Shown here: piece after piece, positions 4,113-45,327 of the stretch
Layout of the letters: the number at the start of each line of letters is the position of its first letter
Position numbering within the stretch: position 1 is the stretch's first letter
Origin: a phage
Assembly: GCA_025812035.1 (NCBI GenBank)
Contig: GCA_025812035.1_4719.1
Length of the DNA stretch: 64,000 nt
Strand: one strand, 5' to 3'
Translations under genes and position numbers: made by a program
Notes under the pieces: generated by a model
Told to the model about the DNA's origin: nothing
The model's input: only the letters and a program-made list of their open reading frames with translations
Database searches by the model: none

Positions 4113-4142
4113 CCACAAAGGTAATATAAGCGTGAATAATTT
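4113..4142 (-). promoter_or_regulatory. TATATTACC-box promoter-like element (class E)
   Basis: Plus-strand GGTAATATAAGCGTGAATAATTTT; member of a 4-copy family, each 57-123 nt upstream of a minus-strand start. Confidence 0.5.
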
Positions 4143-8840: not shown

Positions 8841-9305
8841 TTAAACCAAAGCCGCGATAACGTCATTAACGTTACGGCCTCGTAACTCTGCCGCCAAACG
8901 AATAATTTCATCCAGGGAACGGTTTGTACGAATCTTAGCTACTTTCCAATTTTCAGGATACTGTTCGAAGTTAAGTAACCAAGTCATTACCTTTGCTTGT
9001 TCCACACCGTTAAGTTTGATGGTTGTACGCGGATTGGCTTTGAACCACTTCTTGCTCAGCTGTGCCATACGGCGAACAGGATAAGCGTAAGCGCGGGTCC
9101 AGTCTTTGGACAGATTGTCGAGTAATTCACGGTAGCTGCTGTCGTAGTCTTTGTTGATACGACGTAATAACCAGTTGGCGGTCATTTGATAAAGTTTATC
9201 ATCTTCACGTAAACGCATACCTGCTACCGCTAAATAAATGATAAGACCTGCACCCATGATGAGAGACAGGATAAACAGAACTTGGTTTTCTTGTGCTAAA
9301 GTCAT
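8841..9305 (-). CDS. small membrane protein (single N-terminal transmembrane helix)
   Basis: Hydrophobic stretch VLFILSLIMGAGLIIYLAVAG near N-terminus; TATATTACC box upstream at 9398-9406; hairpin plus U-tract downstream at 8775-8830. Confidence 0.5.
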   Translation of the reverse strand: MTLAQENQVLFILSLIMGAGLIIYLAVAGMRLREDDKLYQMTANWLLRRINKDYDSSYRELLDNLSKDWTRAYAYPVRRMAQLSKKWFKANPRTTIKLNGVEQAKVMTWLLNFEQYPENWKVAKIRTNRSLDEIIRLAAELRGRNVNDVIAALV

Positions 9306-9390
9306 TTTACTATCCTCGGATTTCGTTAGGATTTGATTTCCAATATAAGGACGATGTGATATGCCTTATACAGTCGATTGATGTTGTACA

Positions 9391-9420
9391 TCACCTAGGT
9401 AATATAGCCGTGAAAAATGT
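9391..9420 (-). promoter_or_regulatory. TATATTACC-box promoter-like element (class E)
   Basis: Plus-strand CCTAGGTAATATAGCCGTGAAAAATG upstream of 8841-9305. Confidence 0.5.
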
Positions 9421-9424
9421 TGGA

Positions 9425-10222
9425 TTAACGTGTTCTCCTATCACGGTGGGTATATGACTGAAGACCAATGTCCATATGCGGTAACGTCAATGTCTGCCAG
9501 ATCTGGCGTGCGTAACGATCGAGCGTATGATCGTTGGTAACACAATCAACGGGTTCAATGAGGTGAGTTGTATACTGGCTTTTCTCAGAGAAAGGTTCGA
9601 TGTTGGCCGTATCCCCTAATCCGCTTTTCACCGTGAAGACGAGACGTGTGATTATCATCGCCTTATGTTGCTGTTCGTTATAGCGAAGGCTACGATATAC
9701 CGCATAGCTTCCTCCTTTTAAGCTTCGGGTATAACGAAGATCGGAGGTTGTCTCGGAAATCTGATACAACATCCAATCCAACGTATCTCGCCAGTACGCA
9801 TCATCCACATCAGGAACCGTGATACCGTACCGCGTAGGCAGCAAATCTAAAAGCAGTTTATACAGTCCGCGACGTAAGCCATGCTCTTCTGTTTCCGATA
9901 AACCGTTTCCAACGTAACGTGAGATACGTGTACGTAAATACATACGGATGAACATGTTTGCCATCAGCGATTTCGCGCTACTACTGGTGTCCTCGAAACG
10001 ATCGACGCTGAAACTCGTTTCAATCAACCGTCCATTAAAATACAACGCGGCAACGTACATCGCATTACTGCTATCTCGTTCGATGTTTAAACGACCGCAG
10101 ATGTTGGCTGCATCATTCATGGTAAATTCTAATTTATCATGTTCGATACGGTAAATAATATCTTCTTGGGTTGCCAGGCTCGCGATGCGGCGGTAGCCCG
10201 GAGAAGTGCGTTTTACACTCAT
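9425..10222 (-). CDS. hypothetical protein
   Basis: ORF in track; preceded on coding strand by hairpin-UUUAUGCCGU module at 10255-10289. Confidence 0.55.
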   Translation of the reverse strand: MSVKRTSPGYRRIASLATQEDIIYRIEHDKLEFTMNDAANICGRLNIERDSSNAMYVAALYFNGRLIETSFSVDRFEDTSSSAKSLMANMFIRMYLRTRISRYVGNGLSETEEHGLRRGLYKLLLDLLPTRYGITVPDVDDAYWRDTLDWMLYQISETTSDLRYTRSLKGGSYAVYRSLRYNEQQHKAMIITRLVFTVKSGLGDTANIEPFSEKSQYTTHLIEPVDCVTNDHTLDRYARQIWQTLTLPHMDIGLQSYTHRDRRTR

Positions 10223-10254
10223 GATTGTCCTCGTTTTTCAATTTAAGATTACAT

Positions 10255-10289
10255 ACGGCATAAACCCTCCCCGCCTTATGCAGGGAGGG
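10255..10289 (-). terminator. hairpin followed by UUUAUGCCGU (terminator with possible overlapping promoter box)
   Basis: CCCTCCC/GGGAGGG stem; coding-strand RNA reads hairpin then UUUAUGCCGUAUG, 37 nt before the next ATG. Confidence 0.5.
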
Positions 10290-10304
10290 TAGCCATTGAA
10301 TGGA

Positions 10305-10943
10305 TTAACCTAATTTACCACCGGCGATGTTGGTGAAATCTTCGCCGTCAGGAACTTGCAATAGAATACGTGCCATGTCCCAGTTGGTTAGTGTGATTGC
10401 TTTATCATCGATACTCAGTTCTGGTAGGTCGAGTTCATGATCGTCAAACTCGTAGGAAATACTCCACGTTTCATCTGTTTTAGGATCGGTTATCAGCACA
10501 CCGTCTGTTACACGCATGTAGTCCGGATGCAGCTCATTACTGAATGTGCTGAACGGATCGGTGTAACATTCAGCATACCCCTCGATCTGCTGACGCTGCG
10601 CCTTCGTACGTAAATCAGGGCACGCCATGATGAGTTGTCGGGATATGCCGTTTGCAGCTCGGAAATCCTCCACGGTGTTACATGGCATAACCACATCGTC
10701 GTGGAAGATGTTCTCCGATTGTCTCAGCAAAGTCTTACGGAGTTCAGCATAGTTTATCTGATTGAATGCGTCGAACGTTGCTAACGATTCAGCGTAAAAA
10801 TGCTTTACGTGTTCGCTTGCGCCGCCGAGACTATTCATCAACTTGTGACCGTACTCCATGAAACTTTTATCGAGACCGGAGGACATTTCTCCGAACCTCA
10901 GTGCACGATAACTGTCTCGTCCACCTGTAAATATTTGCGCCAT
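10305..10943 (-). CDS. hypothetical protein with RNAP beta C-terminal-like GGRxxYxxLRFGEM motif
   Basis: N-terminus MAQIFTGGRDSYRALRFGEMSSG resembles bacterial beta-subunit GGKAQFGGQRFGEME; own AAGGAGG Shine-Dalgarno 8 nt upstream; match is short and could be chance. Confidence 0.35.
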   Translation of the reverse strand: MAQIFTGGRDSYRALRFGEMSSGLDKSFMEYGHKLMNSLGGASEHVKHFYAESLATFDAFNQINYAELRKTLLRQSENIFHDDVVMPCNTVEDFRAANGISRQLIMACPDLRTKAQRQQIEGYAECYTDPFSTFSNELHPDYMRVTDGVLITDPKTDETWSISYEFDDHELDLPELSIDDKAITLTNWDMARILLQVPDGEDFTNIAGGKLG

Positions 10944-10958
10944 TACAGGCGTCCTCCT

Positions 10959-11198
10959 TTAGCAATGGTTGTTAGTTGCTTCTATTTCGTCAAGATAAGG
11001 TTCTACGTCATCGCCCTCCACGAATTCGTTGAACCAGCAGTCAATGGTAGAAATAACCGGTGACTGGTGTTCACATTTCTTAGATACCTTAAAAGGTACG
11101 TTATTATCCATCATACCGAGTTCGGGTCGAAAACGCCCGAAATGTTTCGCAGTCCAAATGTCTGGGACGATATGGTTGTTCATCGTGGTGTTCAGCAT
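10959..11198 (-). CDS. RNAP beta-prime-like segment downstream of the catalytic motif (putative 3' exon or separate polypeptide)
   Basis: Translation ...TTMNNHIVPDIW...ELGMMDNNVPF parallels E. coli beta-prime [29 protein letters not shown] that directly follows NADFDGD; in-frame stop 2 codons upstream of the annotated ATG. Confidence 0.4.
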   Translation of the reverse strand: MLNTTMNNHIVPDIWTAKHFGRFRPELGMMDNNVPFKVSKKCEHQSPVISTIDCWFNEFVEGDDVEPYLDEIEATNNHC

Positions 11199-11574
11199 GA
11201 GTCGCTACCTCATACCCGCAGCTTTACCTGCAGCTTCCGGTGTTACCGGAATGTCCAGAATACATCTTATCCATATTCCAAATGGAACGTAGGACTTCCG
11301 CGCTGGATCTCGCTTGAGACCACGTATTCGTTGAACCTGCGTTGTTTCACATTCTTGCAAACAAGAATGCCGTATTGCTACGCAACAACCAGGCTGCTGA
11401 TCGAACATTGTCATGTACGGTAGGCATCCCCGAAGGGACTGTCATTGAAGCCGCGTACATCCGCTACCTTGTTTCTACCTTATCGGTTCCTCTTACGAGG
11501 CGTAGCGGCCTTAGCCCTTCCCAGCAATTCACGGAATCCAAGCTCTTCCTTTCGGAAGGCAGGGCCTATGATTA
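11184..11574 (-). other. possible second intron or unexplained 390-nt spacer between the DGD micro-exon and the downstream beta-prime segment
   Basis: Contains GGTTCAACGAATACG (R-like) and AAGATGTATTC (S-like); ends ...ACG before ATGAACAACCAT; no convincing P1 pairing found by eye. Confidence 0.25.
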
Positions 11575-11587
11575 AGCGTCACCGTCG
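11575..11587 (-). other. candidate 13-nt micro-exon CGACGGTGACGCT completing NADF-DGDA
   Basis: Only GAYGGNGAY in the interrupted region; lies 20 nt after the endonuclease stop; joined to exon 1 at the proposed splice site it gives GAC TTC GAC GGT GAC GCT, restoring NADFDGD. Confidence 0.35.
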
Positions 11588-13028
11588 CTTACGTGCACCG
11601 ACGTTTATTAACTCATGGTTATCCACTGAAATACGGCGTTAGGGAAATAATCCTTCTTGCCGCGTTTTGAGATTTGCAATGCCATATTACTCGGAGACAA
11701 TCTGTAATGCCATGCTGCTTCATCGATAGAACTAAACTTCTTTGTTTCGCCGTTATCAAAGATGATTTTCAACGCTAGTTTAGGTAAATCGTCTTCCGTT
11801 TCTACTAGTTCGAAAGAATCGATATTCTCTGCCAGCGTTAACGGATCAACAGGTAATATCAGCCAACCAGCACGCTGCAATCCTCCACGTAGACTAATTT
11901 GTTTATTCAACGCAGGGGTAGCCATGCCAACTAACTTAGCAGCCAGCTTGCGGTCTTTAATATAAAGACGATAATCTCCGGTATTATTAATAGCATACAC
12001 ACCAAAGTTATTGAACGATACCTTTCCAGCATCGGAACTAGTAAAGCCTACAAAGTCGTGGCTGTCGGTAGCCACGTCGTATTTAAATGCTAATGGCTTG
12101 TTTCGACTGCCGCTAAGATACTTCTTGGCTGTAGATACCGATATGTTGAGATATCGTCCAATAGCATTCAAACTTTCTAGTTCGATGATTTCTCCTGTCA
12201 ATATGTCCTTTAACCGAACATTACCCATCGGTATTGGTGGTTTACCGACATAACCCAATTCACGATATGCGTGTTTCAAGTTATCTGAATCAGTAGCCCA
12301 TTCCAAATTTTCTAGTCTGTTATCCCAACGCACTCCATTAAGATGATTAGGGACACGACGGATTATACCTGACGTCGGATCTGGGTTAAATGTTTCAAGG
12401 ACGATCTGATGATGGTATTTCACTTTGTTGTTCCTAGTGAAAGCGCGATAGTTGTTTTTGCCCGACTTGGGTGGTTCAGTACGAAACAACACTGTCAGAC
12501 TAGACACATCTACTATCGTACCGTTCTTATTAACAACGATACCATCAAAACCATTAACAGGACGATAATCAGACAAACAATCTTCAGAAATTGCCTGTCC
12601 AACTAAAGGTTCACTCAATTTGACCTCCTTTATAAAAGAAGTCGGTGCACGTAATTATCGACTATATCTTCATCCTCGTTGCGAGGAGTCTCCCGTTTTG
12701 GTCTGTGTTTAACAGAGCCTACTCTACTCGACATCGCGTCTTTCGATAGTCTGTGAGCACACATCTTAACGAACATTCGTGGATTCCTAAGCAGGTGAAC
12801 GTTCTTGTTGAGATGCTTCGCTGCGGATTATTCCCGTCCTACCTCTTTTACCATACCCAGTTCATTACGCTGGCCCTCATCTGTGTCACCACGATGAGTT
12901 GGTGTGTAGTCCGATTACAGAAACTTCCCGTCAATTAGAGAGTTTTAACTACGTTCCTGTTACCAGAAACCCGACTCCGACGATATCAATTAAATCAACG
13001 TAAATTATTGATTTAATTGAAGAAACTG
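11588..13028 (-). mobile_element. putative group I intron carrying the HNH homing endonuclease ORF, inserted in the beta-prime catalytic motif
   Basis: Coding-strand elements upstream of the endonuclease ORF: CAGACTATCGAAAG (plus 12741-12753, R-like) and AAGATATAGTCG (plus 12659-12670, S-like); candidate guide sequence GAGTCGG (plus 12971-12977) pairs with exon end CCGACTT with a terminal U-G; proposed 5' splice after GACTT and 3' splice after GTAAG; boundaries are inferred. Confidence 0.5.
11608..12618 (-). CDS. HNH homing endonuclease (TTG start)
   Basis: HNH motif KYHHQIVLETFNPDP...NHLNGVRWDNRLENLEWAT plus C-terminal helix-turn-helix-like DNA-binding repeats; no in-frame ATG, starts at TTG with AAGGAGG 5-6 nt upstream; sits inside the interrupted beta-prime gene. 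Confidence 0.8.
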   Translation of the reverse strand: MSEPLVGQAISEDCLSDYRPVNGFDGIVVNKNGTIVDVSSLTVLFRTEPPKSGKNNYRAFTRNNKVKYHHQIVLETFNPDPTSGIIRRVPNHLNGVRWDNRLENLEWATDSDNLKHAYRELGYVGKPPIPMGNVRLKDILTGEIIELESLNAIGRYLNISVSTAKKYLSGSRNKPLAFKYDVATDSHDFVGFTSSDAGKVSFNNFGVYAINNTGDYRLYIKDRKLAAKLVGMATPALNKQISLRGGLQRAGWLILPVDPLTLAENIDSFELVETEDDLPKLALKIIFDNGETKKFSSIDEAAWHYRLSPSNMALQISKRGKKDYFPNAVFQWITMS

Positions 13029-14284
13029 AAGTCGGCATTATAACCTTTCAAGATCATCACGCTTAACCCGATGGTGTTATCCTGCGGATCGCGTTTAACC
13101 TTGGTGATTTCAAGACATTGGTTACTGCTTCGGTCAAGTGATGGATTTCGAACAAAACCACACACAATCCCATCAAACGGTGTATCAGCAATAAGCTCAT
13201 CGTGCAGCTCGCTCATCATCGGATGATAATTACGGACATGTTCCGCAACGAACGCACGTGCTGCTCTTGGTGAATAACCACGATGGAATAACTTGGATTG
13301 GATATGTTCTTTATTGGTTAATGTAAATGGCGCGTATGGGAAATGCAGATGATAATAACGATGGTTCGCTGTTATCGAACTGATTACGGTACGCGTGGTG
13401 AATGGATGTAATGTACCTAATATGTTTTTACGTGTGATACCTTTCTTCTTACCGATGAACTCATCGAAAATCGCCGAGTGGTACTGCAGCAGCTTCAGTT
13501 GTACTTTCGCCATCCAGTTTTCTTTCTTTCTGGCGCTCAAAGGTGTTGTTGGGTGATAGATACTATTCAATGTACCGATAGCATCGATCGCACCTTCCAT
13601 TTTGCTATCTGCATAACGACCGGTTGGTGTATTCTCGATAACGAACATCATGGCGGCAGGAAAACTGATATACTGGCTGAAGAACTTATCGCGATGAATG
13701 CGGGTGAATTCTCGTAGCGTATCAACTTTCTCCGTGTTCTTCGGTCCGCGTAACGTAGGTCCTTTATACAAGATCTCCATGATGCGATCGAAGTTCTGTA
13801 TAAAGCTATTTATCCCACGTCGTATCCCGAATACATCGAATTGCTGCTCCAGATAGTTCTTGAGTTCGATGGGTCGTTTTACGTTTGGACGGTAACTGGC
13901 ATCAATGAGCCACGTCATCGTTTCAAAGCTTTTGATATTCAACTCGCTTGCCAGCACGAGATGGACCAACGGGTTAATAAACGCATCAATTCCTTCAGGA
14001 ACACGCGCCCAAACCGTCGAACGAATCTCTTGTTCTGCTGGGTAGGTTACAACCGTTTTACAGTTTGGACACACCGTGCCAAGCAGCTCACCACGATTGT
14101 AGAAACCACATCCACATTGTGGTGTGATATCCAACGTATCGCTGGAGTAAACACGGGTGATAAAACTGTTTAATTTCTTCTTCTCTTCGACGACTTTTGT
14201 GTCGTAATCATTCAACAAAATAGGCGTAAAAGGAAGTTCTGCGAGCTGTCTATCGAAACTCACGATATCGAGCATGATGGCCAT
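13013..14284 (-). CDS. multisubunit RNA polymerase beta-prime N-terminal portion (exon 1), ORF runs into intron
   Basis: Zinc ribbon CGCGFYNRGELLGTVCPNCKTVV (compare E. coli [23 protein letters not shown]); GKKKGITRKNILGTLHPFTTRTVISS (compare [23 protein letters not shown]); frame ends GYNADF-SFFN-stop, i.e. inside NADFDGD. Confidence 0.75.
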   Translation of the reverse strand: MAIMLDIVSFDRQLAELPFTPILLNDYDTKVVEEKKKLNSFITRVYSSDTLDITPQCGCGFYNRGELLGTVCPNCKTVVTYPAEQEIRSTVWARVPEGIDAFINPLVHLVLASELNIKSFETMTWLIDASYRPNVKRPIELKNYLEQQFDVFGIRRGINSFIQNFDRIMEILYKGPTLRGPKNTEKVDTLREFTRIHRDKFFSQYISFPAAMMFVIENTPTGRYADSKMEGAIDAIGTLNSIYHPTTPLSARKKENWMAKVQLKLLQYHSAIFDEFIGKKKGITRKNILGTLHPFTTRTVISSITANHRYYHLHFPYAPFTLTNKEHIQSKLFHRGYSPRAARAFVAEHVRNYHPMMSELHDELIADTPFDGIVCGFVRNPSLDRSSNQCLEITKVKRDPQDNTIGLSVMILKGYNADFSFFN

Positions 14285-14326
14285 GGGGTATCTCCTACAA
14301 ATGAAAAAGAACGTTAGGACGTATAA

Positions 14327-14350
14327 GGGAGGGAGGTTGCCCTCCCTCCC
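14327..14350 (-). terminator. terminator-like hairpin after the 631-aa gene
   Basis: GGGAGGGAGG-TTGC-CCTCCCTCCC perfect 10-bp stem. Confidence 0.5.
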
Positions 14351-14376
14351 GTCAGATTACATCGAACGTTCTTCCA

Positions 14377-16272
14377 TTAGAACAGGTTGAATGCCCCACC
14401 CATGTTGTTACCACCAACGTTCGGACGATCGCTGCGTGCGTAGATGCTACCGGAGATATTACCCAGACCACGAGCACGTGCTGCCATGTTACCACGAACA
14501 GCGGTACCCGCCAGATGCTGGATATTCTCAGGACGGATGGTGAAGCCAGCTTCAGCAGCTGCTTCAATCAACGCAGCAAGCGCTTGCGGTTCGAAGTCGT
14601 AACGCATTGCCCAACCGGTTTGTTCCCAGCTACCAGACAGAACACGATCGATGATTTCGTGACGAGCGACAACACGCTGAGACATCGACATATCGGTACG
14701 GTCGAAGCTGTCTTCCCATGCTTCTACGGTATCCGGGTTAGTGATGTTCATCATGTACAGATCGTCCATATCGCGAATATCGTGACGGTTACCATCCTGG
14801 TGGTTGTAGTGACCCAGCGGGATACGGTTACCGGTAGCGTAGACCAGCGGTTGACCGTATTGATATTTCTTGCTGAAGCAGCCCAGGGTAGTATCATCGA
14901 AGGCACGGAAGAGTGCTTTGTAACCTTCAGAGACTTCCCGAACATCAGCCTCAACATTACCCGTATAGATCTTCTCAGCCGCCGGGATCATACGCAACAG
15001 CCAGCTGTATTCGCCTTCTTCCGGCACGTCGATAGAAATCAGCAGGGACGGATACAGTACCTGTTGCAGGAACTTGTAAATCTGCTCATTGGTTTGAGTA
15101 GACAGATCCAGCGGTGCGGTAACTTCCGGATCCAGCACCATCGCCAGAGCACCCGGGTTATGCGGACCGATACCACGAGCAGCGTTGCTGATTAAAGACT
15201 GCGCCCATGCCATGCCGCTGTTCAGCGTAGCAATGGTACCAATCAGACCCAATACAAAAGTATTCGGTGTGAATGCGTCCAGCTCCAGCGGGTAAGCGCT
15301 GGTCATCACGTAACGCGGCTGGTATTGTACAGTCGGCGGTACCGGATAACCGTTAACCAGAACAGGACCTTGGTTGAAGGTCGGGTTCTGCGGGCTGTAG
15401 GTCAGGTCGATATAGCCGGTAGTTGCGACCAGACGCTGCTGGCTATCGTAATCGCTCATCGCTTGACGGATGCGGTTAGAGATAGTTACAGTGATGTCGG
15501 AACGCACTGGGTTACCAACGATATCGCTGTCCTGCATACCGCTGGTGTTATACTGAACGCTGCTGATCGGCTGATCGCTTGCCATCATGCCCAGGTTGAA
15601 CTGCGGCAGGCCCAGTTTATCACCGAGACGGATTTCGATTGCGGTTTGGATTGCGTTATCTGCAGCAGACAGCAGGGTGGTTGCCAGGTGTGCAGATTCA
15701 GCGGTGATTTCATTGGTCACCACAGCCAGACCAGCGATACGAACAGTACCATTAGCCTTGCCACCAATAGCCGCATACATTGCCGCCATGACTTCGTTGA
15801 TGAACGTGCCGTTCAGGTTATCAACCCAGGTACGCGGTACCAGAATGTTACCATGCGGACCTTGTTCTTCACGACGCGGCAGCGGAGCCAAACCGGCAAC
15901 CAGCGGAAGCACATAACCGAAGAAGTGGTTATGATCACCAACTTTCGCACCACTCATAACCACCAGGGTCGGATACGGTACACTGTACTGACCAGGATCG
16001 ACAGTCACCATGATGAAGTCGTCTTTAAAGCCTTTATCTTCCAGTTCTTTTTCCATCAGACGACGGAGGTTCAGTACTTGCTCAGAACCGGTGTTACGGC
16101 TAATACGACGACTCAGTGTACGGTTGATCGTACGCATCGTATGAGTCACTTTAGGCTGGCCAGCAAAGTCTGCAGCGGTTTCCAGCGCTTCATCTGCACG
16201 TTGTGCGGTGCGGGTTTCAGCTGCACGAATTTCTACATTATCGTTACCGTTTTTACGTACGTCTAAGCCCAT
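14377..16272 (-). CDS. candidate phage-nucleus shell protein (chimallin-like), otherwise abundant early protein
   Basis: 631-aa monocistronic unit between TATATTACC box (16345-16353) and terminator hairpin (14327-14350), adjacent to the zinc-ribbon beta-prime gene as chimallin is in phiKZ; length is close to described chimallins as I recall them; no sequence-level confirmation. Confidence 0.4.
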   Translation of the reverse strand: MGLDVRKNGNDNVEIRAAETRTAQRADEALETAADFAGQPKVTHTMRTINRTLSRRISRNTGSEQVLNLRRLMEKELEDKGFKDDFIMVTVDPGQYSVPYPTLVVMSGAKVGDHNHFFGYVLPLVAGLAPLPRREEQGPHGNILVPRTWVDNLNGTFINEVMAAMYAAIGGKANGTVRIAGLAVVTNEITAESAHLATTLLSAADNAIQTAIEIRLGDKLGLPQFNLGMMASDQPISSVQYNTSGMQDSDIVGNPVRSDITVTISNRIRQAMSDYDSQQRLVATTGYIDLTYSPQNPTFNQGPVLVNGYPVPPTVQYQPRYVMTSAYPLELDAFTPNTFVLGLIGTIATLNSGMAWAQSLISNAARGIGPHNPGALAMVLDPEVTAPLDLSTQTNEQIYKFLQQVLYPSLLISIDVPEEGEYSWLLRMIPAAEKIYTGNVEADVREVSEGYKALFRAFDDTTLGCFSKKYQYGQPLVYATGNRIPLGHYNHQDGNRHDIRDMDDLYMMNITNPDTVEAWEDSFDRTDMSMSQRVVARHEIIDRVLSGSWEQTGWAMRYDFEPQALAALIEAAAEAGFTIRPENIQHLAGTAVRGNMAARARGLGNISGSIYARSDRPNVGGNNMGGAFNLF

Positions 16273-16337
16273 TTGGGATTCCTCTTTTCTTAAACTTTAT
16301 TAAATGACGTCATTGAATCAGCTTCTACTCGCTCATT

Positions 16338-16367
16338 CACCTAGGTAATATAACCCTGAAATTTTTT
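16338..16367 (-). promoter_or_regulatory. TATATTACC-box promoter-like element (class E)
   Basis: Plus-strand CCTAGGTAATATAACCCTGAAATTTTTTT, 73 nt upstream of the 631-aa gene. Confidence 0.5.
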
Positions 16368-16526
16368 TCAATATTGGTGTAACCGTATTGAACGATATAA
16401 ACCCCTAGGTGAATGCTGCCGAGAAGCAACATTCTTTCTACATATAATCAGGATATGTCTGTAAACTTTTACTTCTCTTATTGAGAGTAACATCATATCC
16501 GCTTACTACCTTCTTACGGAGTTCGT

Positions 16527-17621
16527 ATGTTTCGTGTTTTAAATAACCTCCCGCGAACATCATCGGGTGTGCAACCCATCCCTCAGAAAGACTATCTGAT
16601 ACGCGAAGTTCAAAGAAACCTACAAACAATCCAGAACCACTATCAGGGTTTTACCTTCGCGGTTCAGAGTGATCACATCCTTGCGTTGCTGCTCGCACAG
16701 CTCCCTATGAGATACGACATCTCTGTACAAACTTACTACGACATGATTCTCGATCTTACACCAGAATTGGGTAATCGTGTTAAGTTGACAACATCGAGAT
16801 ACGCAGGTAAGTTATTCGACGGAGCTTTCTATCCGGGATTGCATGAAGCCATCATCGCAACCGGTGAAAGCCGTCTTATTTCACGGGATGTTCTTGACAA
16901 CTGGCGTAATTGGTCACCGGTTAGAATCGTGACGCACCCGTACGCAAATCTTCGTTACATTCCTCTTCACCGAAAACAGGTTGAAGAAGGACGAGGTTTC
17001 GCGGTCATCATGGTCGATGTACCTTTATTAGCATTACAGTATCGAATGTGGTCTTTGGTCATGGGCCATAACGTCGACGGTAAATGGGTGGTTAAAGAAC
17101 CGGTTACGAGCTTCCTTGCGAGTTTTCCATTGGTTAACGCATTATACTCACACAACGATGTTGTCATACGCAACCGTTGTTTGTGGGTACCTCCGGCTAA
17201 GAATCCACTCAAGTCGCCGATTTACGTTAACGACCTGGATAACGTATTCAGTCAAGTCGTGCTGTCCGTACAACATCATTTATTACGAAGAAGACGAAGC
17301 TACACCGACATGCTTAAACAGATACCGAGTTTATACGGGGATCAGTACCAAGCAACCCGAATGGGCTACACCGTCGATCTTCGACAAACCCGATGGGCAA
17401 GGGATCTAGGCTGTATGTCATTATGGCAGCAGCTCGTCACACTGCAAAACGTATCTGAAAGCGTCGGGTTCAGCAGTCAAATCGATAATGATCTGTACCG
17501 CGCCGCCGACCGGAGTCTGAAAGAAGGTAGCTGGGAATCCTCTCCGTTACCCGGCGATTTGCGGCGTGAAGTTATCGCACAGGTTGCCGACCTCTTAAAA
17601 ATTCTTCCTGCTGGGACATAA
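16527..17621 (+). CDS. hypothetical protein
   Basis: ORF in track; plus-strand gene bounded 3' by a bidirectional hairpin at 17625-17677. Confidence 0.5.
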   Translation: MFRVLNNLPRTSSGVQPIPQKDYLIREVQRNLQTIQNHYQGFTFAVQSDHILALLLAQLPMRYDISVQTYYDMILDLTPELGNRVKLTTSRYAGKLFDGAFYPGLHEAIIATGESRLISRDVLDNWRNWSPVRIVTHPYANLRYIPLHRKQVEEGRGFAVIMVDVPLLALQYRMWSLVMGHNVDGKWVVKEPVTSFLASFPLVNALYSHNDVVIRNRCLWVPPAKNPLKSPIYVNDLDNVFSQVVLSVQHHLLRRRRSYTDMLKQIPSLYGDQYQATRMGYTVDLRQTRWARDLGCMSLWQQLVTLQNVSESVGFSSQIDNDLYRAADRSLKEGSWESSPLPGDLRREVIAQVADLLKILPAGT

Positions 17622-17624
17622 TCA

Positions 17625-17677
17625 CCTCATCCCTTTCCTTGCATCCTCCCAACCCGTAAAGGGAAGGGAGGATGAGG
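17625..17677. terminator. bidirectional terminator-like inverted repeat between convergent genes
   Basis: CATCCTCCC ... GGGAGGATG plus outer CCTCATCC/GGATGAGG pairing. Confidence 0.45.
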
Positions 17678-17685
17678 GTATTATG

Positions 17686-19839
17686 TTACTCTGCGGCTTC
17701 TTGCTTCGGTAAATAACTTGCAGCGATATCTTGAGCTAACAATGTATTATTTTTATTCGAGATGAAAATACCGTAACTTTCCATCAACGCGTAATACGAA
17801 CGAACAAGCGTAGAGATCAGTCGACGAATATCCATACCTTGAATAAAGATATCAGGAAGCCCGGAGGCTTCGATCACCGGTAATGGTATCGTTAAATTAC
17901 TTATTGTTTTCTTATCGTTACGTACAATCCAATCGCGGAAACGTTGTTGTAACCCTTTATCCTCCCATGAATCAATCCAATCATTAAGAAGCGTTTTGTT
18001 CTTCGTCGCCAACGGCACACGAACCCCAACATAAGGAGGTTCGGAGCAATGGCCGTACGATTGAGCAAACACCTCTTCCCACATATCGTAAGACTGTTTC
18101 GTTACTGCAACATGTGGTTTCACTTTAACACGTGTTAAGAAATCGGGGTCACCTCGTTTCATTGACTCAACGATTTCGTTTTCTAACGAGATGATATCAT
18201 CAAGAACCAATCGAATACTGATCTTCTCGTTACGTAACAGCTTATCCATGATACCACACATCATCCGCTCAACACGTTGGACGATCATCTTCGGCGCTGA
18301 TGCGTCGCGCATAACTGGGCCTTTCAATTCCAGCTTCGGTGGATTGATAGGAACCCCTTCACGCATGGTCATGTAACCGTAATAGTTTTTACCCATCGAG
18401 GTTAACGACAGGATCAAGAACATATATTCGTTCTTCATTTCCATCACGTACATATGCTCTTTCGCCACACCGATATTACCAGAGCACATCGCCATCAGAT
18501 GAACCGTGATCTGTGTAACCAGATAGATAAGCGTGTTGGCTAAGCGCGTCGAAACTGGATTGATCTCCATATTCCCAAATCGCCACTGAACCCACTCCTG
18601 ACAGGTAAATACCGTTGAGTCGGTATCGGACAACACCCCCACTTCACGGATCGCTGATGGGAAAGCATAAACACCCGCCGGTTGGTTCTCGGTACGCCAG
18701 AACGCCATAATCAAGTCAGCGTAACCTTGAATACGTTGCAACATTAATTTTGTCGTTGCTGCGGTAAGACGATAACCAAGTTCATTTCCTTTTTCTAGCG
18801 CGACGTAAATCGCTTCTCCATTCAAGAACTCCGTGCATTGTGCTGTAATCCATGCGACGGTGTTGTTATCCATGGAAGCAATAATGGCTTTAGCTTCTTC
18901 CATCGTTTCAACAGGTTCGGATGCCAGTTCACATAACGAGTCAAGAAAATGACGAACGAATTCAGGATTAAGCTCACGTAACGAGTACAGGTTATTGCTG
19001 TACATATAGCAAGCGCGTTCCAACGGGGTTAAACCAGTGATTAGCTCCCGGATGACCAATTCTTTCTCTGGGTCGAAAGTGTACCGATGCAAGCATTTCG
19101 ATACGTTAGCCCAAACCTCTTCCGGCGTAGGGTAATGCAGTTTGTATTTTACCATCACCTGCTCAATGGCGTTACGATCGCTATTGCGAACAATGCTTAC
19201 GATGTTTTCAATTGCGATATCACAATCGTAATAATGGAAATTGCCTGCCAGGAAGCGTTCATTGTTCGCATTGGCCGAACCTGAAGCGCAGCGACATGTT
19301 GTTGTTAAACTCGGATGCGCAATCGGATTATAAAACGGATTAAACTTGGACGCCTGTGTTCCCGACAAACTGTTGTTATCTAACTTGGTGTTGGTTTGTC
19401 GTTTATCGTGTAGTTCAGCTTCGTCTTTACGTCCGTGTGCTTGTGCTATCGACATTTGTTTCTTTTGTTTCTTACGCAACTTACCGTTTTCAACCGCAAA
19501 GTCGCTTAGCACGCTGGAACGTGTCTCGCGTGGATAACAGTTAGCCCATACCGGCGTGATAATTAAATTATTTTCTTTAATATCGTTGAAATATTGACTG
19601 AACTTGATGACTTCTTTTTCTCGATTTCCTTCGGTACGCTGTGTTAAAACAAGACAGTCGGGATCAACCATCCCGTATTTTCCGCCAGGACGTACCGTAT
19701 CAAGAACAAACTGCAGCGCTTCCTGCTGCGATATCCCACGCATGCGCATTAAGAACAGGGTATAATCCTGCACCGCTTCTTTGGTCATATCCAACGTACG
19801 ACCGTATCCGTTTTCATCGTAAAAGAACGGATTTTCCAT
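17686..19839 (-). CDS. hypothetical protein with family-B DNA polymerase-like motifs (divergent)
   Basis: Ordered motifs NNLYSL (SLYPS-like, but lacking the catalytic Asp), TKLMLQRIQG (compare phi29 KLMLNSLYG), VLSDTDS (YGDTDS-like), GKNYYG (KxY-like); assignment is tentative. Confidence 0.3.
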   Translation of the reverse strand: MENPFFYDENGYGRTLDMTKEAVQDYTLFLMRMRGISQQEALQFVLDTVRPGGKYGMVDPDCLVLTQRTEGNREKEVIKFSQYFNDIKENNLIITPVWANCYPRETRSSVLSDFAVENGKLRKKQKKQMSIAQAHGRKDEAELHDKRQTNTKLDNNSLSGTQASKFNPFYNPIAHPSLTTTCRCASGSANANNERFLAGNFHYYDCDIAIENIVSIVRNSDRNAIEQVMVKYKLHYPTPEEVWANVSKCLHRYTFDPEKELVIRELITGLTPLERACYMYSNNLYSLRELNPEFVRHFLDSLCELASEPVETMEEAKAIIASMDNNTVAWITAQCTEFLNGEAIYVALEKGNELGYRLTAATTKLMLQRIQGYADLIMAFWRTENQPAGVYAFPSAIREVGVLSDTDSTVFTCQEWVQWRFGNMEINPVSTRLANTLIYLVTQITVHLMAMCSGNIGVAKEHMYVMEMKNEYMFLILSLTSMGKNYYGYMTMREGVPINPPKLELKGPVMRDASAPKMIVQRVERMMCGIMDKLLRNEKISIRLVLDDIISLENEIVESMKRGDPDFLTRVKVKPHVAVTKQSYDMWEEVFAQSYGHCSEPPYVGVRVPLATKNKTLLNDWIDSWEDKGLQQRFRDWIVRNDKKTISNLTIPLPVIEASGLPDIFIQGMDIRRLISTLVRSYYALMESYGIFISNKNNTLLAQDIAASYLPKQEAAE

Positions 19840-45297: not shown

Positions 45298-45327
45298 TCA
45301 GTTAGGTAATATAGACCTCAACTTTTT
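45298..45327 (-). promoter_or_regulatory. TATATTACC-box promoter-like element (class E)
   Basis: Plus-strand GTTAGGTAATATAGACCTCAACTTTTTT upstream of 44703-45182. Confidence 0.5.

Follow-up and report, generated by a model that had tools for sequence, protein, structure and literature searches.

The open reading frame at 14377..16272, on the minus strand of the window (the whole 64,000-nt stretch of phage DNA analysed here), is, as judged from sequence, chmA, the orthologue of a structurally solved chimallin, and it belongs to the chimallins by every measure that could be applied. We are close to certain of the best overall reading, namely that this is the chmA of a Goslar-like Escherichia coli jumbo phage, with a shell function assigned by orthology, an early promoter and a hairpin at the end of the gene. 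The features on which this reading draws are the following.

14377..16272, minus strand: chmA open reading frame, ATG start, 631 aa, intact
16344..16352, minus strand: TATATTACC box, motif of the chimallivirus early-promoter type, located 71 nt before the ATG of chmA
16273..16343, minus strand: presumed chmA 5' UTR, read from sequence, with zero differences from Goslar
14327..14350, minus strand: perfect 10-bp GC-rich hairpin GGGAGGGAGG-GCAA-CCUCCCUCCC, then UUAUA; probable 3'-end, terminator or attenuator element

Identity of the 631-residue protein

The sequence-only reading of this DNA had proposed a candidate nuclear-shell (chimallin-like) gene of 631 aa at 14377-16272. The gene is present as claimed, as an intact frame that lies on the minus strand (the earlier reading named no strand), and its assignment is borne out by PF25677, PHROG 4795, the structure 7SQT and Goslar ChmA alike. 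Comparison with profiles of characterised chimallins, suggested earlier as a check, gave 96.9 bits to the Pfam family PF25677 (Chimallin_Phikzvirus, Phikzvirus chimallin family), against a gathering cut-off of 27, and E = 2e-54 (186 bits) to PHROG 4795, 'nuclear shell protein'. The Pfam alignment covers residues 20-596 of the protein and profile positions 11-592 of 627, placing most of the protein above the curated threshold. In a PDB search, 7SQT (Goslar chimallin) was matched full-length with E = 0; weaker, colinear matches were to PhiPA3 PhuN (8FNE) and to the chimallin entries 7SQQ and 8IGG. The alignment to 7SQT is gap-free, and by sequence the protein would thus have the two-domain core and the NTS, CTS1 and CTS2 tails. 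Indeed, 607 of the 631 residues (96.2%) are identical, without a gap, to Goslar YP_009820873.1 ('gp189'), which Laughlin et al. 2022 (PMC9365700) expressed and solved by cryo-EM. This 96% gap-free match to a solved chimallin settles the question of identity, and nothing counts against it. The alternative named in the earlier reading, that the frame encodes a different abundant early protein and not the shell protein, is contradicted by the family profiles, by the match to a solved structure and by the 96% identity to the characterised Goslar ChmA; no support for it was found, and we regard it as extremely improbable.

The Goslar gene (RefSeq HOV27_gp246, labelled there 'nuclear shell protein'; PDB 7SQT/7SQU/7SQV) also encodes 631 aa and has the same neighbours in the same orientation; the two coding sequences are 93.5% identical at the DNA level, with 24 substitutions in the protein. 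The similarity extends well beyond chmA. Megablast of window positions 13000-17700 returned a single close phage, Escherichia phage vB_EcoM_Goslar, at 94.6% over the whole query, and positions 20000-44999 are 93.3% identical to Goslar in DNA. An identity of 93-95% to Goslar lies near the usual species boundary. Gene order is as in Goslar: divergent family-B DNA polymerase, a 364-aa divergently transcribed gene, chmA, beta'-N, group I intron, HNH. The core-gene context is that of a chimallivirus, with the nvRNAP beta'-N gene adjoining chmA, the divergent DNA polymerase found by PF20286 (676.7 bits in the window) and the tubulin PhuZ, which, together with terminase and tail sheath, is among the genes annotated in Goslar under window positions 20000-44999. 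The window comes from a Goslar-like phage of the Chimalliviridae, in the genus Goslarvirus or very close to it. In the phage collection only Goslar was close, the next chimallins being less than 30% identical. No match to chmA came up in a megablast search of 5,426 complete E. coli genomes, indicating that the phage is absent from those assemblies.

The place of the gene had been described as immediately upstream of a zinc-ribbon beta-prime gene, as in phiKZ, and both halves of this description hold. The downstream gene, 13013..14284 (minus strand), has a zinc ribbon of the form CxC...CxxC, and its match to PHROG 2987 (RNA polymerase beta subunit) has E = 4e-117; in phiKZ, gp54 (chimallin) is followed by gp55 (beta'). 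The chimallin-beta' adjacency also holds in Erwinia phage RAY, where gp222 precedes nvRNAP beta' subunit 1, and, by match coordinates, in Noxifer, KpGz_1, AH06 and LucasX. The chimallins 201phi2-1 gp105 (7SQQ), PhiPA3 gp53/PhuN (8FNE) and phiKZ gp54 likewise lie directly upstream of nvRNAP beta'-N; they belong to the same Pfam family and are colinear with the window protein over about residues 62-600, although only about 20-25% identical to it. RAY gp222 differs in length (711 aa) and shows about 24% identity over part of its sequence. Goslar-type chimallin has a shorter CTS2 tail than that of 201phi2-1, with different contacts (PMC9365700). Length and position alone would be compatible with another abundant early protein as well.

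Predicted shell function and variation in ChmA

By orthology with Goslar ChmA, the window protein should form the shell. Structure, localisation and essentiality were published for the Goslar orthologue, 96% identical, and not for the window phage. Goslar ChmA has a cryo-EM structure and an in situ lattice (PMC9365700), and its GFP fusion forms a halo around phage DNA (PMC9891218). Knockdown of Goslar ChmA with dCas13d lowered plaquing at least 10,000-fold and arrested infection at the early vesicle stage, at which chmA mRNA was still produced (PMC10541120); the production of this mRNA so early places chmA in the early programme driven by the virion RNAP. On the strength of the Goslar orthology, ChmA would self-assemble into a square lattice, one molecule thick, around the replicating phage DNA (the 'phage nucleus'). 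Assembly would involve the two-domain core together with N- and C-terminal tail segments docking onto neighbouring protomers, and the resulting shell would keep out host nucleases and ribosomes. With structure and function of the Goslar orthologue already published, the chmA finding is a known one.

The codons of the two chmA genes differ synonymously at 88 positions and non-synonymously at 24, which indicates a real gene under strong purifying selection. The 24 substitutions fall at residues 76-94, 173/177, 439-474, 495, 529, 561-574, 609 and 621, whereas residues 178-438 contain zero amino-acid changes despite about 40 synonymous differences. The tails are nearly unchanged, with N7K alone in residues 1-75 and N609S and V621G in 575-631. 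The lattice-forming tails in 201phi2-1 numbering are NTS 48-61, CTS1 590-611 and CTS2 622-631 (PMC9365700), and the PDB-search alignment implies similar positions in the window protein. A decaying or non-functional copy of chmA might be suspected from the 24 amino-acid differences and from their local clustering, mainly at residues 76-94, 439-474 and 561-574. However, the frame is full-length, intact and without indels, and codons with non-synonymous changes are far fewer than those with synonymous changes (24 versus 88). Many independent contigs from public metagenomes encode exactly this protein, and several of them, at 238-240 kb, have the length of an entire phage genome; roughly 84 public assemblies have this exact ChmA. 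A decaying copy is scarcely credible against this evidence, and the comparison of sequences identifies the window ChmA as a circulating allele. It is useful as a natural allele set for structure-function work, with its 24 tolerated substitutions and 261-residue invariant core.

Promoter and gene-end hairpin

The promoter box predicted upstream of the 631-aa gene was recovered: the TATATTACC 9-mer at 16344-16352 (minus strand) is one of four copies in the 64-kb window, where 0.41 are expected, and none of 100 shuffles reached four. All four sites lie on the minus strand in intergenic DNA, 57-123 nt upstream of minus-strand genes, and share an extended pattern of an A/T-rich run, TTTCAsGs, TATATTACC and TwdGTG. 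The published predicted promoter consensus of phiKZ is TATATTAC, and that of 201phi2-1 is ...TTTRARR-B-TATATTAC-DWHD-GTG (PMC7058600 Table 2); the window motif equals the former and closely fits the latter. In the window and in phiKZ alike, the 8-mer TATATTAC ends at a distance of 73 nt from the chimallin ATG; in RAY this distance is 70 nt. The site upstream of chmA thus has an enriched motif of the TATATTAC type, an A/T-rich upstream part and a suitable distance, as an early-promoter consensus would have. A scan for sigma-70 sites around chmA gave 5 against 8.0 expected, with no host-type promoter signal. A Shine-Dalgarno GAGG lies at 16284-16281, 8 nt before the ATG. The stretch from box to ATG is 100% identical to Goslar, with 7 differences in the 175 nt further upstream; this identity may reflect extra constraint, for which the evidence is marginal. 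The injected virion RNA polymerase would transcribe chmA early from this TATATTACC-type promoter 71 nt upstream, and both use of the promoter and early timing are most likely in the window phage.

At the other end of the gene, 26 nt after the chmA stop and 42 nt before the next ATG, lies the hairpin at 14327-14350, with arms GGGAGGGAGG and CCTCCCTCCC on the two sides of the loop. Its extended fold has a dG of -40.4 kcal/mol (z = -7.1). The earlier description of a perfect 10-bp terminator hairpin is right about the ten perfect base pairs and goes too far in the word terminator: a canonical rho-independent terminator has a GC-rich stem-loop with at least 5 T directly after it, and here the stem is followed by TTATACG. 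With no T-run behind its stem, the hairpin was passed over by the scan for canonical intrinsic terminators. In the extended fold, a U-rich CUUUUUCAUU located 17 nt beyond is paired with A-rich sequence upstream. As the canonical scan is silent, we infer, and do not observe, that the hairpin is a terminator and chmA monocistronic.

The hairpin is not alone in the window. Ten loci have a perfect hairpin whose stem is 9 bp or longer. Together they give 16 stem/loop registers, whereas 30 first-order Markov resamplings of the window averaged 1.6. Most of these loci lie just past the ends of open reading frames, and several have stems rich in GGAGG/CCUCC and a UUUAU-like tail on the coding strand. 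We therefore class the chmA hairpin as a gene-end hairpin of a phage-specific class and not as a canonical terminator. A 9-bp hairpin after the chimallin stop is also found in phiKZ and RAY. The hairpin and the whole 3' flank of chmA are 100% identical to Goslar; conservation of the flank was dropped as a sign of function, since identity to Goslar is about 98% throughout the downstream block anyway.

What is doubtful in the earlier reading is that chmA is monocistronic and very highly expressed. We favour a GC-rich hairpin that would end or attenuate the transcript 26 nt past the stop, ahead of the nvRNAP beta'-N gene, and the hairpin probably marks 3' ends or attenuates transcription for the phage polymerases. 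Neither a TATATTAC box nor a sigma-70-like site occurs in the 92 nt that separate the stop of chmA from the start of beta'-N, and beta'-N may depend on read-through because no such box lies between the hairpin and its ATG. It is possible, though we think it doubtful, that chmA and beta'-N form one early operon, in which the hairpin would act as a leaky attenuator, or would stabilise or process the mRNA, and would thereby keep the ratio of ChmA to nvRNAP high. The promoterless gap, the missing T-run with the silence of the canonical scan and the early requirement for nvRNAP subunits would all fit such an operon. However, the 10 perfect hairpin loci, mostly past the ends of frames and several with UUUAU-like tails, suggest a phage-specific 3'-end signal, and the legend of Extended Data Fig. 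4 in PMC10541120 mentions separate transcriptional start sites for chmA and nvRNAP beta'(1).

Two bolder readings concern the hairpin and the substitutions in ChmA, and we think them unlikely. In the first, the GGAGG-rich hairpin without a U-tract would be a dedicated termination or attenuation signal of the phage multisubunit RNAPs, tuning the ratio of ChmA to nvRNAP-beta' from one early promoter. In the second, the 24 substitutions, in three surface-sized patches beside an invariant core of 261 residues, would mark interfaces that co-evolve with shell partners or host defences, and not neutral drift. The layout of promoter and hairpin around chmA is kept from Pseudomonas to E. coli chimalliviruses.

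A predicted split in the nvRNAP beta'-N gene

The gene downstream of chmA, whose Goslar counterpart is labelled nvRNAP beta'(1) in PMC10541120, appears from sequence alignment to be interrupted by two group I introns, with a 13-nt microexon between them. Its predicted parts, with the endonuclease gene inside the first intron, are as follows.

13029..14284, minus strand: nvRNAP beta'-N exon 1, zinc ribbon CGCG...CPNC, PHROG 2987; ends ...KGYNADF (GAC TT)
11588..13028, minus strand: group I intron A, 1441 nt, with HNH/NUMOD endonuclease ORF; Rfam RF00028; ends ...GTAAG
11608..12618, minus strand: HNH/NUMOD ORF in intron A; Pfam HNH_3 and NUMOD1
11575..11587, minus strand: 13-nt microexon CGACGGTGACGCT (C GAC GGT GAC GCT), encoding the DGD of the catalytic NADFDGD
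11184..11574, minus strand: intron B, 391 nt, no ORF, group-I-like by fold and covariation; ends ...CCACG
10959..11183, minus strand: beta'-N exon 3, MNNHIVPD... (ATG AAC AAC CAT) to the stop, with a profile match of the spliced protein

The annotated beta'-N frame of 423 aa stops four codons after ...KGYNADF, inside the universal catalytic motif NADFDGD, and all intron-less homologues align only up to ...NADF. One of these, RAY gp223, whose gene has no introns, continues ...NADFDGDELNVML... to 495 aa. Exon 1 is 99.3% identical to Goslar. The boundaries of exons and introns were set by aligning the window with metagenomic relatives that encode an identical ChmA, and both junctions obey the group I rule, with U as the final base of the exon and G as that of the intron. 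The spliced frame stays open over 497 aa, reading ...KGYNADFDGDAMNNHIVPD..., with the removal of intron B restoring the frame. Splicing raises the match to PHROG 2987 from 392.8 bits (profile positions 1-419) to 444.8 bits (positions 1-474 of 478), and the spliced protein is colinear with RAY gp223 across the junctions. In the relative L006 the sequence GAC TTT GAC GGT GAC GCG ATG AAC AAC CAT is contiguous. The view that the DGDA* at 11586 is a chance match and that beta' ends at NADF was rejected by the alignment with intron-poor relatives.

A complete group I core of intron A was found with Rfam RF00028 at 12642-13019 (47.8 bits, E = 2e-10, gathering cut-off 50). At gathering thresholds Rfam returned nothing over positions 9000-17800, and the group I intron appears only at E-value thresholds. 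Intron B, searched in Rfam by itself, gave no match. It is nonetheless strongly structured, its fold having z = -4.1, and 23 of its base pairs are kept through compensatory changes in the L006 variant. Among these is a P7-like helix GAAUAC/GUAUUC adjoining GGUUCAACGA and AAGAUGUAUUC, two sequences that resemble group I core elements.

The equivalent of exon 3 is annotated in Goslar RefSeq as a separate hypothetical protein of 79 aa, and the literature searched yielded no description of the two-intron/microexon structure of the Goslar beta'-N gene. In phiKZ, the annotated end of gp55, ...KAPN, lies just before the expected ADFDGD, and next come the HNH gene gp56 and a group I core. The HNH ORF of the window was rejected as an orthologue of phiKZ gp56, as only the HNH/NUMOD part aligns (30% over 87 aa).

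Intron occupancy differs among phages with the same ChmA. The window, Goslar and the relatives L005 and L007 have intron A, with its HNH gene, and intron B. L006 has a single B-like intron inserted 5 nt upstream of site A, after AAT GCT, and L008 has the same layout of called genes. In L004 there are three introns, leaving two 13-nt microexons: intron A without an HNH ORF (42.9 bits), intron B, and intron C, another of group I (Rfam 30.6 bits, E = 1.6e-4), inserted after AAA GGG T. L009 shares the called-gene layout of L004. Four intron insertion sites thus lie within 27 nt of the beta'-N sequence that encodes the catalytic loop of the polymerase.

The chmA finding itself adds little beyond correctly naming the shell gene of another Goslar-type phage; the Goslar orthologue already ranks among the best-characterised chimallins. 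The beta'-N gene is the more promising lead. Its four alternative insertion sites, across near-identical phages, seem to offer a natural setting in which to study how introns compete in nucleus-forming phages.

Two group I introns in the polymerase gene beside chmA

The nvRNAP β′-N gene of the window, which encodes the zinc-ribbon subunit and lies beside the nuclear-shell gene chmA on the minus strand (10959-14284), contains two group I introns. Between them lies a 13-nt microexon, CGACGGTGACGCT, that encodes the DGD of the catalytic NADFDGD motif.

Introns and microexon of the β′-N gene
11588-13028, minus strand: intron A, group I, with an HNH/NUMOD endonuclease ORF inside
11575-11587, minus strand: microexon CGACGGTGACGCT, 13 nt
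11184-11574, minus strand: intron B, group-I-like, without an ORF

Intron B was not detected by Rfam. Predicted splicing yields a product of 497 aa that is colinear with homologues free of introns.

The same region in Goslar, phiKZ and close relatives

The RefSeq annotation of Goslar (NC_048170.1, 3997-7285) seems to be incomplete at the β′ gene. A single Intron_gpI feature is recorded at this locus, the annotated β′ is a 423-aa protein whose end is intron read-through, and exon 3 is listed on its own as HOV27_gp185, a hypothetical protein of 79 aa. Likewise, annotated phiKZ gp55 (NC_004629.1, 4583-7137) ends in KAPN plus five read-through codons, just short of the expected ADFDGD; next come the HNH gene gp56 and, after it, group-I-like core sequence (GGTTCAACGACTA ... 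GAAGATATAGTC). The catalytic-loop region of phiKZ is therefore intron-occupied, like that of the window, at a site 7 nt away from that of intron A. The gp56 protein has only the HNH/NUMOD part in common with the HNH protein of intron A.

Even among phages that encode identical ChmA (loci L004-L009, metagenomic relatives), the intron complement of β′-N varies. Some carry intron A, with its HNH ORF, and intron B; others have a single B-like intron inserted at a different site; and further phages have three introns (a further one, C, then A without the HNH ORF, and B) together with two 13-nt microexons.

β′-N intron regions in two of these relatives
L004, 6190-7610
L006, 6190-6870

In all, four insertion sites fall inside a 27-nt stretch that codes for the catalytic loop, a hotspot where introns have apparently been gained and lost.

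Sequence signals around chmA and across the window

Four TATATTACC boxes are present in the window, all of them intergenic, on the minus strand and upstream of minus-strand genes, with the common flanks AAAAwTTTCAsGs...TATATTACCTwdGTG. They probably mark its early transcription units.

TATATTACC boxes and the inverted repeat upstream of chmA
4120-4128, minus strand: box
9398-9406, minus strand: box
16344-16352, minus strand: box, putative promoter of chmA
45305-45313, minus strand: box
16334-16345 and 16404-16415: 12-nt perfect inverted repeat, CATTCACCTAGG / CCTAGGTGAATG, between chmA and a 364-aa gene

One arm of the repeat, the left, reaches into the end of the promoter box of chmA. In the right arm, two positions differ in Goslar; this arm is preceded by GATATAAACC on the plus strand, and the site may be a variant promoter of the divergent 364-aa gene.

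Perfect hairpins with a stem of at least 9 bp occur at 10 loci in the window (16 stem/loop registers; mean in Markov resamplings, 1.6), namely at 14327, 26130, 29435, 32471, 32843, 35153, 46218, 50560, 56703 and 63501. Comparison with the ORF list of the window places the majority just past ORF ends. Several have stems rich in GGAGG/CCTCC and a TTTAT-like tail without a T-run; the class may represent a 3′-end signal specific to the phage polymerase.

The chmA coding sequence (14377-16272) has a G+C content of 52.5%, compared with 46.7% for the window. Long ORFs of 313, 226 and 109 aa run antisense to it on the plus strand; they most likely reflect codon composition and do not represent genes.

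Lineage of the window phage

DNA identity between the window phage and Goslar is only 93-95%. No record of the window phage was found in the phage GenBank collection searched, and none in complete E. coli genomes. Its exact ChmA is recorded in 84 blocks of public assemblies, contigs of 238-240 kb among them. The phage probably represents an undescribed yet common Goslarvirus lineage.
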